Shown here: one piece after another, positions 3,363 through 6,201 of the stretch | Numbering within the stretch: the first letter of the stretch is position 1 | How the letters are laid out: the number at the start of each line of letters is the position of its first letter | Sequence record: PQ330092 | Origin: Escherichia phage JP4 | DNA: 64,000 nucleotides | Strand: one strand, 5' to 3' | Program-made: the position numbers and the translations under genes | Notes under the pieces: generated by a model | The model's input: the letters and a program-made list of their open reading frames with translations, nothing else | What the model was told of the DNA's origin: nothing | The model's database searches: none

Positions 3363-3391
3363 TTGACAGTACTACCATCGTGTAGTACTAT
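3363..3391 (+). promoter_or_regulatory. promoter TTGACA-N17-TACTAT containing AGTACT, upstream of membrane-protein array
   Basis: Consensus -35, 17-bp spacer, TACTAT -10; the same architecture recurs upstream of the small-protein array at 21683. Confidence 0.45.
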
Positions 3392-3420
3392 AACTTAATA
3401 TTCACCACCGGAGATACGAT

Positions 3421-3762
3421 ATGCTTGAGTTTTTTAATTCAGATACAATGCTTGGTATCACGCTAATTTACATGTTTGTATTCTTGTTTTATCATTCAAT
3501 TGTAATTAGTCTTTGGTATTTTAAAAGGAAAGTTGTTTTTAAATTGTATTCGTATGATAATGTACTCTTAGTAGTATATAGCATTATACAAGGTGGGTTT
3601 ATTTTATTTGGTGTGATGACATATGTGATTTACATGTTACAAATTGATAATACACCACACATTACACAATATGTTGTGTTTTCAGGACTAATCGTCTGGT
3701 TATTGGTGTGTACTCTGTATTTTATTATTAAAGCTCGTGATAACTTTAAATGGGGATTCTAA
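3421..3762 (+). CDS. small integral membrane protein, paralog 1 of 8 (113 aa)
   Basis: Hydrophobic helices, conserved WYFKRK motif after first helix; tandem paralog family. Confidence 0.65.
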   Translation: MLEFFNSDTMLGITLIYMFVFLFYHSIVISLWYFKRKVVFKLYSYDNVLLVVYSIIQGGFILFGVMTYVIYMLQIDNTPHITQYVVFSGLIVWLLVCTLYFIIKARDNFKWGF

Positions 3763-4100
3763 TGTTAGAATTTTTTAAATCAGATACAATGATTAGTATT
3801 ACTTTGATTTATCTGTTTGGTTTTTTCTTTTATCATGCACTAGTTGTAGTACTATGGTATTTTAAAAAGAAAATTGTTTTTAAACTGTATCCAGTGAGGA
3901 ATTCATCACTAGTTCTTTACACACTTGTTCAAGGTTTGTTTGCAATTGTTGGTCTTATGGCACACTTAATTTATTGTGCCAATCCTCACTTGAACTCAAT
4001 CTCACAATATATTGTATTCTTTGGGTTGTTCATTTGGTTAGTTGTATACTTAATCCATCTCATTATTCATGGTAGAGATAAAATTCGCGGAGACTTCTAA
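3762..4100 (+). CDS. small integral membrane protein, paralog 2 of 8
   Basis: Start at MLEFF ATG overlapping previous stop (TAATG); clearly alignable to paralog 1. Confidence 0.65.
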   Translation: MLEFFKSDTMISITLIYLFGFFFYHALVVVLWYFKKKIVFKLYPVRNSSLVLYTLVQGLFAIVGLMAHLIYCANPHLNSISQYIVFFGLFIWLVVYLIHLIIHGRDKIRGDF

Positions 4101-4447
4101 TGTTTGAAGCTTATCTTGAGTTTTTAAGGAGTAGTCCAGTTGCACATTCACTTGCAGGGATTATTCTAACAACTTATGTATCATTTTGGGTAGTTATGTT
4201 TCTAGGATGGTATTTTAAACGACAATTCTATAAACGTAATGGTGAAGATTTTATGAATTCTGTCATTAATCAATCGTTGTTTGCATCAACATTGATTGCA
4301 TGTATTGTAGCAACACTCACAGGAAAGGTACTACCAGCTTTTTCCGCAGTTTACGGCACACTTGGGATGATATGTTTAACTTTTATATTGACCATTAAAA
4401 TTTGTTGTGTTATGATTGAACTTCGAAATAAGATACCGGAGGAATGA
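4100..4447 (+). CDS. small integral membrane protein, paralog 3 of 8
   Basis: TAATG stop-start overlap; WYFKRQ motif; hydrophobic. Confidence 0.6.
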   Translation: MFEAYLEFLRSSPVAHSLAGIILTTYVSFWVVMFLGWYFKRQFYKRNGEDFMNSVINQSLFASTLIACIVATLTGKVLPAFSAVYGTLGMICLTFILTIKICCVMIELRNKIPEE

Positions 4448-4782
4448 TGGAGTACTTTATTGATTTACTGCCGTGGTATATGAAAGTTAGTACCATGTAC
4501 TATATTATTAGTGCTGGATTCTACTTTCTGATGTGGTTCTTTAAACGACCAATTTCAGTATTCATCGCTGATAACATGTTGCAATTAAAATTACACGCAT
4601 GGTTTGGTATGGCGATGATTATGCCTATTATTCACTACTCAATGATTAGTAGAGGTTTCCATTCTAATGGTGAACCAATTGTATTAGTATTCTATTGGGG
4701 TTCAACTATTGCATATGTAAGTTTGTTGTTGTTCCCAGTCGTTCATAAGTTACGTGCTAAAGTTCCTGATGCGAGGTACTAA
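4444..4782 (+). CDS. small integral membrane protein, paralog 4 of 8
   Basis: ATGA overlap with previous gene; WFFKRP motif. Confidence 0.6.
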   Translation: MMEYFIDLLPWYMKVSTMYYIISAGFYFLMWFFKRPISVFIADNMLQLKLHAWFGMAMIMPIIHYSMISRGFHSNGEPIVLVFYWGSTIAYVSLLLFPVVHKLRAKVPDARY

Positions 4783-5096
4783 TGGATATAGTAACATTGA
4801 TTTACACGTTGTATTCATTCTATTTCATTATGTGTTGGGTTGGATTTTTATTTGTACTCAAGATGTTTGATTATGTTGAAAAACAGATAAAAGAATTTTG
4901 TATTCCTTTTATCGGTTCAACCATTATTAGTGTTTCTTGTGTGTATTTTTTGGTTTTTGATCCACCAGATAACACTGCAATGATTGACTTGATGTTACTA
5001 CCAACAACTGTTACTTTTTTATGTAGTCTGATGCCGCCGATTAGCCGTGGGCTAACCGAATTTAGACGCAATCAAAAGCGTAAACGAGGGATGTAA
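4782..5096 (+). CDS. small integral membrane protein, paralog 5 of 8
   Basis: Overlapping start; hydrophobic; basic C-terminus QKRKRG. Confidence 0.6.
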   Translation: MDIVTLIYTLYSFYFIMCWVGFLFVLKMFDYVEKQIKEFCIPFIGSTIISVSCVYFLVFDPPDNTAMIDLMLLPTTVTFLCSLMPPISRGLTEFRRNQKRKRGM

Positions 5097-5464
5097 TGGA
5101 AATTGCTCTTATTATCTTAACTGCTATGCTGTTTATTAGTACTGTGGTTATAATTGGTAAATTCTTTTGTGTATCATTTTTAGAAACGGTATACGATGAA
5201 ATTTCTGATGATTATGAATTACAAGCCGGATTTTTCATTACGTATTGGCTTAGTTTATTTTGTCTAGTCATTGCTTGGATTTTACATATCTTTAAATGGG
5301 GTATGGTAGACGGTGATCCTATTATGGCAATTATTGTTCTAGTGTTTGGTATCCTTGGTGGTGCAGTGCATAATCTAATGGTTATCTGGCAAACTGTTCA
5401 ATATGTTTTGGTTCCCTATTTCGAAAAGATGCACAGTACAATTAAAAAACGTAAACGAGGTTAG
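5096..5464 (+). CDS. small integral membrane protein, paralog 6 of 8
   Basis: Overlapping start; hydrophobic; basic C-terminus KKRKRG. Confidence 0.6.
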   Translation: MEIALIILTAMLFISTVVIIGKFFCVSFLETVYDEISDDYELQAGFFITYWLSLFCLVIAWILHIFKWGMVDGDPIMAIIVLVFGILGGAVHNLMVIWQTVQYVLVPYFEKMHSTIKKRKRG

Positions 5465-5465
5465 T

Positions 5466-5828
5466 ATGAACGGGATAGAATTATCTTTCGTTGGTCAATT
5501 ACTAGTAATGGCGTATACATTTATCTTCTCACTGAATGCATTCGTGTGCATTGGGAAGTACTTCCATAAGCGACCATTATCAAATATATATGATGTAATC
5601 CAAAAGAGATATAGTCCAGCATATACTGTGTTGGGTACAGTATTCAATTTTGGTTTTATTGTATTAATAATTGGACTGTTCACATCCTCTTTGAATACAA
5701 TAACCTTCGGTCTTATGATATGTTCATTGGTATTAGCCGTAATTATATGTTGTTTAGTACTACACCTTGTGATACTATTATATATAAAGATCTCTGAAAT
5801 CCACCAACGTTTGGGTATGAGGAAATAA
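5466..5828 (+). CDS. small integral membrane protein, paralog 7 of 8
   Basis: Start chosen at MNGIELSF ATG just after previous stop rather than the longer overlapping ORF (5403). Confidence 0.55.
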   Translation: MNGIELSFVGQLLVMAYTFIFSLNAFVCIGKYFHKRPLSNIYDVIQKRYSPAYTVLGTVFNFGFIVLIIGLFTSSLNTITFGLMICSLVLAVIICCLVLHLVILLYIKISEIHQRLGMRK

Positions 5829-5829
5829 T

Positions 5830-6201
5830 ATGAGTTACCGTGAGATATTTTCCATTATTTCAATTATTATGTTCAGTACTGGAACACTGGTATGGTTATT
5901 ATATTTCTTCTGTATTAATCCAGTGTATAATATGTTATGTAATATTAAATCAAGTGCCGGATATATCACTTTTATGGTCTTTATGGGATATTATTGTCTA
6001 AGCATTTTAGGTGTTGTTTTGGTTGTTATATTTGATGTGGGGCCAAATAGTGATGGTATGGAAATACATGAATTAATAACCATGTTTGGATGTATGATAC
6101 CAACAGCACTACTGTTTGTAGCTACTGGTAGTGGATTGATAAAATTATATAATTATTTAAAATCCATTCATAATTCCATTCATAATAAGCGTATGTCATA
6201 A
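5830..6201 (+). CDS. small integral membrane protein, paralog 8 of 8
   Basis: RBS GAGGAAA; hydrophobic; followed by AGTACT-centred palindrome TCCAGTACTATTAAGTACTGGA at 6209-6230. Confidence 0.6.
   Translation: MSYREIFSIISIIMFSTGTLVWLLYFFCINPVYNMLCNIKSSAGYITFMVFMGYYCLSILGVVLVVIFDVGPNSDGMEIHELITMFGCMIPTALLFVATGSGLIKLYNYLKSIHNSIHNKRMS

Follow-up and report, generated by a model that had tools for sequence, protein, structure and literature searches.

We analyzed a 64,000-nucleotide stretch of DNA from Escherichia phage JP4 (record PQ330092; the whole stretch is hereafter called the window), which carries near its start an array of eight tightly packed + strand genes (3421-6201) for small membrane proteins of 104-123 amino acids (aa). 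We refer to these genes as m1-m8 (Table 1). Over positions 3300-6300, the region that we compared for nucleotide identity, the window is 99.7% identical to Escherichia phage SP27 and 96-98% identical to 121Q, PBECO4, Sharanji and other Asteriusvirus jumbo phages (~350 kb); its source is an Asteriusvirus (121Q/SP27-like giant coliphage) genome. Public annotations call the array genes 'hypothetical protein', apart from some mis-transferred labels, and the array is not mentioned in any paper that we found in the literature searched. The CRJP21 record labels m1 and m2 'DNA condensation protein', which looks like another such transfer.

A sequence-only reading of this DNA had described eight consecutive genes of similar length, and the gene lengths given above agree with it. 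It had placed the start of the array at 3363, where there is no start codon; this position is the TTGACA of a promoter-like element. Three gene starts required a choice between candidate codons. For m2, the start at 3762, within a TAATG overlap, agrees with the orthologs, while the mechanically called open reading frame (ORF) begins at 3750. The spacing from the Shine-Dalgarno (SD) motif and the MEYF start of the orthologs favor the second ATG of m4 (4447), and an SD motif and the orthologs likewise favor 5466 for m7, whose mechanical ORF begins at 5403 (141 aa). The stop-start overlaps that had been reported throughout are present at five junctions (TAATG at four, ATGA/TGATG at one) and absent at m6/m7 and m7/m8, where a 1-nt spacer separates the genes. 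All eight starts are preceded at 5-9 nt by a GGAG/GAGG-type SD motif, which lies within the last codons of the preceding gene. As the ribosome-binding site of each next gene occupies these final codons, the Gly/Glu/Arg-rich C-termini are shaped in part by this signal. The C-terminus of m8, which has no downstream array partner, is basic nonetheless, and the basic C-terminus that had been noted as frequent proved to be general across the array.

Table 1. Features at the array locus, with positions in the window.
Feature	Position	Strand	Description
AAA ATPase gene (T4 NrdC.10 type)	2583-3353	+	Upstream neighbor; Walker A GAPGVGKT; PF00004, 24 bits (cut-off 21.2)
Sigma-70-type promoter	3363-3391	+	TTGACA-17 nt-TACTAT, 10/12 match; in intergenic region 3354-3420
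m1	3421-3762	+	113 aa, three transmembrane (TM) segments; lineage G12 (second copy of m2 type); phrog_19454, E 1.7e-50
m2	3762-4100	+	112 aa, three TM; lineage G12; phrog_19454, E 1.1e-53
m3	4100-4447	+	115 aa, three TM; lineage G3; phrog_19046
m4	4447-4782	+	111 aa (112 if start at 4444), three TM; lineage G4; phrog_27396
m5	4782-5096	+	104 aa, three TM; lineage G5; phrog_33258
m6	5096-5464	+	122 aa, three TM; lineage G6; phrog_26405
m7	5466-5828	+	120 aa, three TM; lineage G7
m8	5830-6201	+	123 aa, three TM; lineage G8; final array gene; phrog_27618
Hairpin	6208-6231	.	10-bp stem, CCAGTACT-loop-AGTACTGG core, -14.3 kcal/mol, z -4.4
220-aa soluble protein gene	6244-6906	+	Downstream neighbor; phrog_34359; possibly co-transcribed with the array

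Each of the eight proteins contains exactly three Kyte-Doolittle hydrophobic segments (mean hydropathy, GRAVY, 0.6-1.1), so that none lacks predicted TM helices; at one threshold, 45 of 49 relatives have three as well. The multi-pass character proposed by the sequence-only reading is thus retained, and its count of three to four helices becomes three in every protein. Across 45 family members, Lys and Arg residues number 356 in loop 1 and the C-terminal tail versus 39 in the N-terminus and loop 2, a distribution that points to an N-out/C-in topology. The prediction is clear that these are inner-membrane proteins with a periplasmic N-terminus and a cytoplasmic C-terminus. A basic patch after helix 1, which had been described as a common feature, is present in m1-m4 and m7 and is weaker or absent in m5, m6 and m8.

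In AlphaFold2 models of two array proteins, m4 (pLDDT 83.7) and m6 (pLDDT 95.1, pTM 0.80), three long helices follow one order. TM1 leads through a short cytoplasmic helix to TM2, and a short periplasmic turn joins TM2 to a long TM3, which extends ~20 residues into the cytoplasm. The helices of the m6 model lie at residues 2-21, 27-38, 40-66 and 76-121. The TM helices of the array proteins contain few polar or charged residues. Fold searches returned generic helical bundles only, and the best BFVD match of the m4 model was the m7 paralog of 121Q. Pfam, NCBIfam, PADLOC and a PDB sequence search likewise yielded nothing from which a function could be assigned. In an alignment of 31 family members, all share a Phe where TM1 ends on the cytoplasmic side (WYFK, KFFC, YFFC or FLFA; pattern W/Y/K-Y/F-F-K/C; F33 in m4, F24 in m6), and every member has Arg or His at one position after TM3 (phi-[RH]-x-K-[IL]). 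The TM1 Phe is the sole invariant column in the 48- and 42-sequence alignments.

The relationship among the eight proteins is close for one pair only. The m1 and m2 proteins are 54% identical and m1 is 9-19% identical to each remaining member, in line with the earlier description of an alignable first pair followed by more diverged members. We gathered orthologs from PBECO4, fEgEco12, A4, JNE01, RaK2 and KP13-7 and sorted them into seven lineages, G12 (m1 and m2), G3, G4, G5, G6, G7 and G8. Between lineages, hhalign gave collinear alignments with scores of 60 for G3-G4 (P 2e-10), 41.5 for G6-G8 (110 columns), 39.5 for G3-G5, 38 for G6-G7, 37 for G12-G3 and 32 for G3-G7, as compared with a mean of 13.3 (sd 2.9, max 23.7) for reversed-profile controls. 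When profile hidden Markov models (HMMs) of the lineages were searched against 380 ORFs from the window and related loci, members of other lineages were recovered at E 3e-9 to 1e-3, ahead of any decoy, and the first decoy ORFs appeared at E 0.04-0.2. The G3 model, for example, matched G4 (9e-8), G5 (4e-7), G12 (7e-5) and G7 (3e-4); the G7 model matched G6 at 3e-9 and the G6 model matched G7 at 3e-8. Two sub-clusters emerged, G12/G3/G4/G5 and G6/G7/G8, which are bridged by the G7-G3, G7-G5 and G5-G6 matches. A superfamily HMM scored 68-88 bits on exactly the eight array ORFs of the window, with nothing else at E < 0.3. By these profile comparisons all eight array genes form one paralogous superfamily, and the cross-HMM matches and the hhalign scores above reversed controls bear out the proposal that they are tandem membrane-protein paralogs.

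The PHROG database divides the same proteins among six families of 'unknown function' (19454, 19046, 27396, 33258, 26405 and 27618), which are ortholog groups from RaK2-like jumbo phages with the window proteins as full-length members. Full-length profile matches were obtained for seven of the eight proteins (E 1.7e-50 to 1.4e-70); the exception, m7, has a weak match to 26405 alone (E 0.054). Whereas PHROG treats these as six unrelated families and has none for m7, our comparison places them in one superfamily within a conserved array. New in the present analysis are this single superfamily, the conserved array architecture tied to an nrdC.10-type gene, and a pattern of constant and variable domains.

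When 1.84 billion representative proteins were searched exhaustively with an HMM, 28 clusters were returned (E <= 0.001), all of 99-130 aa, and word-indexed homolog searches with 8- and 31-sequence alignments found close relatives only. Orthologs occur in Asteriusvirus, Alcyoneusvirus and more distant jumbo-phage contigs, and by these searches the family is restricted to RaK2-like (RaK2/121Q-like) jumbo phages. Its most distant members come from a 362-kb RaK2-like contig (L010) with a four-gene array and from a metagenomic contig with a six-gene array; Klebsiella phage fENko-Kae01, Salmonella phage Munch and Erwinia phage Hallingskeid are among the nearest relatives of the latter contig. Arrays hold 4-9 genes and in every case directly follow a gene for a 255-264-aa AAA ATPase. 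Opposite-strand RCC1-like genes then follow the array, in the window as elsewhere, sometimes after a gene for a DUF1190-type lipoprotein, which takes the place of the 220-aa gene in A4, RaK2, KP13-7 and the distant contig L012.

The gene order of the window array (G12 G12 G3 G4 G5 G6 G7 G8) recurs in 121Q, ph0011 and UE-S1, and with a single G12 in PBECO4, fEgEco12 and A4. JNE01 has two G5 genes, the m5 lineage being duplicated, and RaK2 and KP13-7 carry two G3 genes, then G12 G4 G5 G6 G8 and a further divergent member, without G7. The m1 gene is missing from PBECO4 and fEgEco12, and phAPEC6, slurp01 and E9.1 show a matching gap of ~340 nt (93% coverage in two pieces). On this comparison, six to seven paralog lineages are ancient, their order is kept across genera, and members have been duplicated (G12, G5, G3) or lost, a pattern of birth-and-death evolution. 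The 'unusual dosage' to which the sequence-only reading had drawn attention does not reflect local amplification in this phage, since the same six to seven lineages stand in the same order across genera; m1/m2 is the sole lineage-restricted duplicate in the window array. Paralogous families are a general feature of these genomes: ~10% of RaK2 gene products are paralogs (PMC3622015). Such families of jumbo phages, of which the RCC1-like genes beside the array are an example, are likewise tandem, lineage-specific and subject to birth and death, but the array differs from them in encoding integral membrane, non-virion proteins, in being translationally coupled and in being tied to one conserved neighbor gene.

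Several observations on individual records belong beside this survey. In the 121Q record (L001, 5481-5796), m5 is split by a frameshift, which may be a sequencing error. We considered whether natural knock-outs speak for dispensability and rejected this evidence: the Salmonella SD-6_S16 and SD-1_S14 records (L015 and L016) lack G3 and have a truncated m7, but neighboring genes are fragmented too, and these records may contain sequencing or assembly errors rather than natural knock-outs. A link to phage phi92, raised by the note 'Phi92_gp231/gp233' in the ph0011 record, was also rejected; gp231 and gp233 are unrelated small proteins, there is no array, and tblastn with m2 gave no phi92 match. 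Complete E. coli genomes contain no copy of the array region. Many draft assemblies deposited at NCBI as 'Escherichia coli' hold 345-378-kb contigs that encode m2-m8 family proteins, and Asteriusvirus genomes are often co-assembled with isolates (carrier state or contamination).

The array evolves faster than its upstream neighbor. In comparison with fEgEco12, the ratio of nonsynonymous to synonymous substitution rates (dN/dS) was 0.10-0.39 for the array genes versus 0.02 for the ATPase gene. Protein identity along the array in this comparison is mosaic (m3-m5 90-92%, m6 83%, m7 73%, m8 63%). Among the lineages as a whole, G4 (m4) is the best conserved. Against phage A4 (L004) the contrast is greater: the ATPase proteins are 96% identical (synonymous divergence, dS, 0.55), whereas the adjacent array proteins are 26-66% identical and their dS is saturated. 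This contrast argues that the array has been exchanged or replaced as divergent alleles and has not merely drifted. The divergence between the window and A4 changes sharply at or just after the ATPase gene (window 2583-3353 versus 3421-6201), which indicates a recombination boundary; at this boundary A4 carries an extra 72-aa ORF with two TM segments that is mis-annotated as 'endonuclease V'. Change is also uneven within the proteins. Mean identity between genera is 0.47-0.49 for TM1, loop 1, the N-terminus and the C-tail versus 0.25-0.34 for TM2, loop 2 and TM3, and among close relatives the proportion of sites that vary rises from 0.23-0.26 in TM1 and loop 1 to 0.36-0.45 in TM2, loop 2 and TM3. 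The SD motifs, the dN/dS ratios well below 1 and the orthologs across genera indicate that the array genes are real and under selection.

The same evidence disposes of the idea that AT-rich DNA has produced hydrophobic frames by chance here, or that the genes are pseudogenes in decay, an idea for which one could cite the uniformly hypothetical public annotations and the split m5 of 121Q: with SD motifs on all eight genes, intact frames, selected orthologs across genera and a family HMM that finds these eight window ORFs and no others, we consider it effectively refuted.

The ATPase encoded upstream matches phrog_1250 (E 3e-103) and is 36-39% identical over ~96% of its length to proteins of tequatrovirus (T4-like) records such as RB3 nrdC.10, with 1309 phage records in all; by this comparison it is an ortholog of T4 NrdC.10. 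In the two contexts inspected outside RaK2-like phages, those of T4-like RB3 and of PA5oct, no membrane array follows the ATPase gene, and we therefore see the array as something that only the RaK2-like clade has added. For the ATPase gene there is a separate, strong sigma-70-like promoter at 2525. Where the array abuts the ATPase gene with no intervening promoter, as in A4, RaK2 and the distant contigs L010 and L012, the two are presumably co-transcribed. We tried to establish a functional link between ATPase and array through other phages and rejected the attempt, as adjacency alone is no proof and RB3 and PA5oct carry the ATPase without the array. Upstream of the ATPase gene in the window lies a 372-aa HNH/homing-endonuclease-like ORF (1396-2514; phrog_559, E 7e-24), and relatives differ in the genes that they carry between endonuclease V and the ATPase gene, marking the region as plastic.

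In the window and its closer relatives, the array is preceded by a composite promoter. The spacer of the sigma-70-type element holds an inverted repeat, GTACT-N10-AGTAC, giving the layout TTGACA-GTACT-N10-AGTAC-TAT, and this composite promoter is kept upstream of the array in 121Q, PBECO4, fEgEco12, JNE01 and UE-S1. The 29-nt pattern TTGACAGTACT-N10-AGTACTAT occurs in the window at 3363, 41959 and 42235 and in repeat copies of the latter two, where 0.02 occurrences are expected. The sites at 41959 and 42235 precede small genes in the terminal-repeat region, beside a weakly kinase-like gene. This gene (42567-43151), just downstream of the two array-type promoters, encodes a 194-aa protein with a Pkinase match of E 0.002 that is below threshold; its L010 homolog is annotated Phage_T7_kinase. 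As RNA, the promoter palindrome is not unusually stable (z -0.8) and is therefore more likely a DNA-level element. We found no meaningful Rfam match at the array.

The first half of the pattern is also common on its own. Over the whole window, TTGACAGTACT(A/G) and its variants with up to two mismatches number 89 copies, as compared with 9 expected; examples lie at 3363, 33923, 36763, 37025, 38130, 41959, 42235, 44812 and 45123. Many copies belong to sigma-70-like promoters between genes (TTGACA...TACTAT or GTATAAT) or to hairpins that contain AGTACT. The motif looks like a phage-specific promoter/operator or stem-loop element, and we take it to recall the promoter-early stem-loops of T4-type phages.

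From these motifs, the array would be expressed early or in the middle of infection by host RNA polymerase. No copy of TATAAATA, the late-promoter motif of T4, occurs in the window, where 14.6 +/- 3.6 copies are expected, with the reservation that this T4 consensus may not be that of these phages. Its absence suggests either strong avoidance outside late genes or a window without late promoters. Together with a sigma-70-type promoter that is shared with genes of the terminal repeat, the missing late motif would argue against late expression. The hairpin after m8 resembles a terminator on the minus strand only, where its T-run lies, and is therefore probably an inefficient stop for + strand transcription, making read-through into the 220-aa gene probable. 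We found no PDB relative of the 220-aa protein.

We hold with high confidence to this descriptive account as a whole, namely an operon of eight coupled genes for one three-pass protein family that is specific to RaK2/121Q-like phages and comprises about seven ancient, ordered lineages placed after an ATPase gene. In other words, a conserved, fast-evolving operon of the RaK2/121Q jumbo phages is given over to small inner-membrane proteins. On present evidence these proteins are an uncharacterized family and not a demonstrated new mechanism.

As to function, the sequence-only reading had put forward superinfection exclusion, lysis timing or membrane remodeling, and our evidence shifts the relative weights of these roles. 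The early-type signals, the non-structural status of the proteins, the allelic replacement and the changes in copy number led us to guess at an accessory module of the conflict type. Our preferred reading, to which we give a probability of roughly 35%, is that the array is an early accessory module of the inner membrane that acts in exclusion or anti-defense. Host RNA polymerase would read the operon from the sigma-70-type promoter, so that the proteins, produced early, would insert into the inner membrane of the host. With almost no mass outside the membrane, they would act within it or at its cytoplasmic face. TM1 with its invariant Phe, the short cytoplasmic loop and the helix after TM3 with its Arg/His could form a common module for anchoring, oligomerization or partner binding, and the faster-evolving TM2-loop-TM3 hairpin could supply target specificity. 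The result would be a non-structural module of envelope takeover that blocks a step at the inner membrane, either the DNA entry of rival phages (superinfection exclusion) or the action of host defense effectors on the membrane.

Known superinfection-exclusion proteins such as T4 Imm, P22 SieA and HK97 gp15 are non-structural, dispensable and fast-evolving, and Imm is an early gene product. Like the array proteins, these are small phage-encoded proteins of the inner membrane. The phAPEC6 orthologs of the array proteins (gp012c-017c) are not among the 62 proteins of its virion proteome, which is consistent with a non-structural role, and the DUF1190-type lipoprotein gene downstream of the array in four lineages lends weak support to a role in the envelope. 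If exclusion or anti-defense is correct, the array would amount to a compact library, assembled by nature, of factors for conflict at the membrane, built from a constant scaffold and a variable helical hairpin, and it would help in making sense of host range and of competition between phages in therapeutic coliphages.

Several points weigh against this interpretation. Imm, SieA and HK97 gp15 are single genes for proteins with one or two TM segments, whereas here an ordered array holds seven paralog lineages, and searches of Pfam, NCBIfam, PADLOC, PDB and BFVD turned up no characterized exclusion or anti-defense protein, Imm and Sie included, that the array proteins resemble in sequence or fold. 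Early timing is deduced from promoter motifs alone. Fast divergence could mean relaxed constraint on membrane helices instead of conflict, and virion mass spectrometry readily overlooks proteins that are small and hydrophobic. Moreover, six to seven ordered paralogs of equal size with coupled genes fit a single complex at least as well as independent effectors.

The last point leads to an alternative that we consider unlikely but that accounts for much of the architecture: the paralogs would be subunits of one phage-built inner-membrane complex (for example a channel, a platform or a remodeling device), each lineage in a fixed position, perhaps with the NrdC.10-type ATPase. The order of the same six to seven lineages is unchanged between 121Q-like phages, RaK2 and the metagenomic relative, yet viable phages differ in membership, with seven or eight genes, no G7 in RaK2 and four distant members in L010. 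The near-equal lengths and the stop/start overlaps suggest coupled, stoichiometric translation, but overlapping starts are common in early regions of T4-like phages. Cytoplasmic motifs are common to all paralogs; the scarcity of polar and charged TM residues does not suggest a pore. The array of A4 diverges as a block, as subunits might, while the divergence from fEgEco12 is mosaic within the array. The array always adjoins the ATPase gene, in L010, L012, A4 and RaK2 with no promoter between them, but the ATPase is found in ~1300 T4-like phage records and occurs in RB3 and PA5oct in contexts without the array. A stricter version, in which the seven lineages form one ATP-driven machine docked through the cytoplasmic Phe and basic motifs to the ATPase and serving, for example, envelope remodeling, genome entry or exclusion, strikes us as distinctly less probable still. 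A single complex, possibly including this widespread, uncharacterized ATPase, would point to a new phage membrane machine.

Lysis timing is a further possibility, which we judge improbable. The array proteins would then be holin- or antiholin-like and would permeabilize or depolarize the membrane to release an endolysin of the SAR type. They share with class I holins (lambda S, P22 gp13 type) a size of ~105-120 aa, three TM segments, a predicted N-out/C-in topology and a basic, charged C-terminal tail, but differ from them in having no sequence-family match, no lysis cassette, an early-type promoter and eight diverged copies, a number not expected of a timing device. The authors of the RaK2 genome report found no T holin or RI (PMC3622015), and RaK2-like phages have a predicted endolysin whose N-terminus carries a TM domain while CBB is without an annotated holin (PMC5259590), so a holin assignment, if true, would bear on a lysis system that lacks one in both papers. 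Against this, the 121Q endolysin is gp532 (PMC5259590) and the array is gp224-232. The genes that flank the array encode the AAA ATPase, the 220-aa soluble protein and RCC1-like virion proteins and not an endolysin or spanin, and neither neighboring gene has a lysozyme or endolysin match. We found no match to holin families in Pfam at E <= 1 or in NCBIfam at E <= 0.1, holin-labeled proteins in the fold search were insignificant (E 2-8), and the sigma-70-type promoter and the lack of TATAAATA anywhere in the 64 kb would not suit a late lysis gene. A separate holin candidate, g406, lies elsewhere in the fEgEco12 genome (L021, 1353-2015); this protein has 220 aa and one N-terminal TM segment, and the fEgEco12 authors report an HHpred match to T4 holin T with a probability of 89.9, which Pfam did not confirm in our hands. 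The evidence probably argues against lysis timing and fits an early accessory role. Two further candidates in this connection were rejected. UniRef, as one source, labels the fEgEco12 ortholog of m3 'Holin', a label that disagrees with the table of the fEgEco12 authors, in which g406 is the holin, and that we judge unsupported. The 220-aa gene downstream of the array does not qualify as a T-type holin, as its product has no TM segment and no PDB match.

The proteins might instead modulate host inner-membrane proteins of division, transport or proteolysis early in infection, for takeover and not for conflict between phages; of this we are slightly more skeptical than of lysis timing. Small membrane proteins that act through TM-TM contacts are known inhibitors of division and transport, and the early-type promoter and membrane location would suit such a role. 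The close relative Sharanji is reported to cause filamentation of its host (review PMC13282480), but nothing ties the array genes to filamentation. Matches to known inhibitors are lacking in Pfam and NCBIfam, and because host targets are conserved, fast divergence and allelic replacement would not be expected.

Two other features of the window deserve mention. Positions 26766-46879 and 46880-64000 form a tandem direct repeat with a period of 20,114 nt and 99.88% identity (20 mismatches in 17.1 kb). The second copy continues to the end of the window, the junction occurs in no related phage record, and the sequence next to the junction is located, in records of 366-383 kb, either at ~20-21 kb or at position 1. 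The repeat unit looks like a direct terminal repeat of ~20 kb present in two tandem copies, as in a concatemer or at the junction of a circularized assembly. Beyond the array, from 6887-9828 onward, the minus strand carries a run of paralogous genes with RCC1/WD40-like repeats, annotated 'DNA condensation' in 121Q, with negative GC skew to ~26 kb. Mass spectrometry places their phAPEC6 orthologs (gp003-010) with the virion, and the RCC1-like proteins are therefore probably structural (perhaps a fiber or hair) and not chromatin factors.

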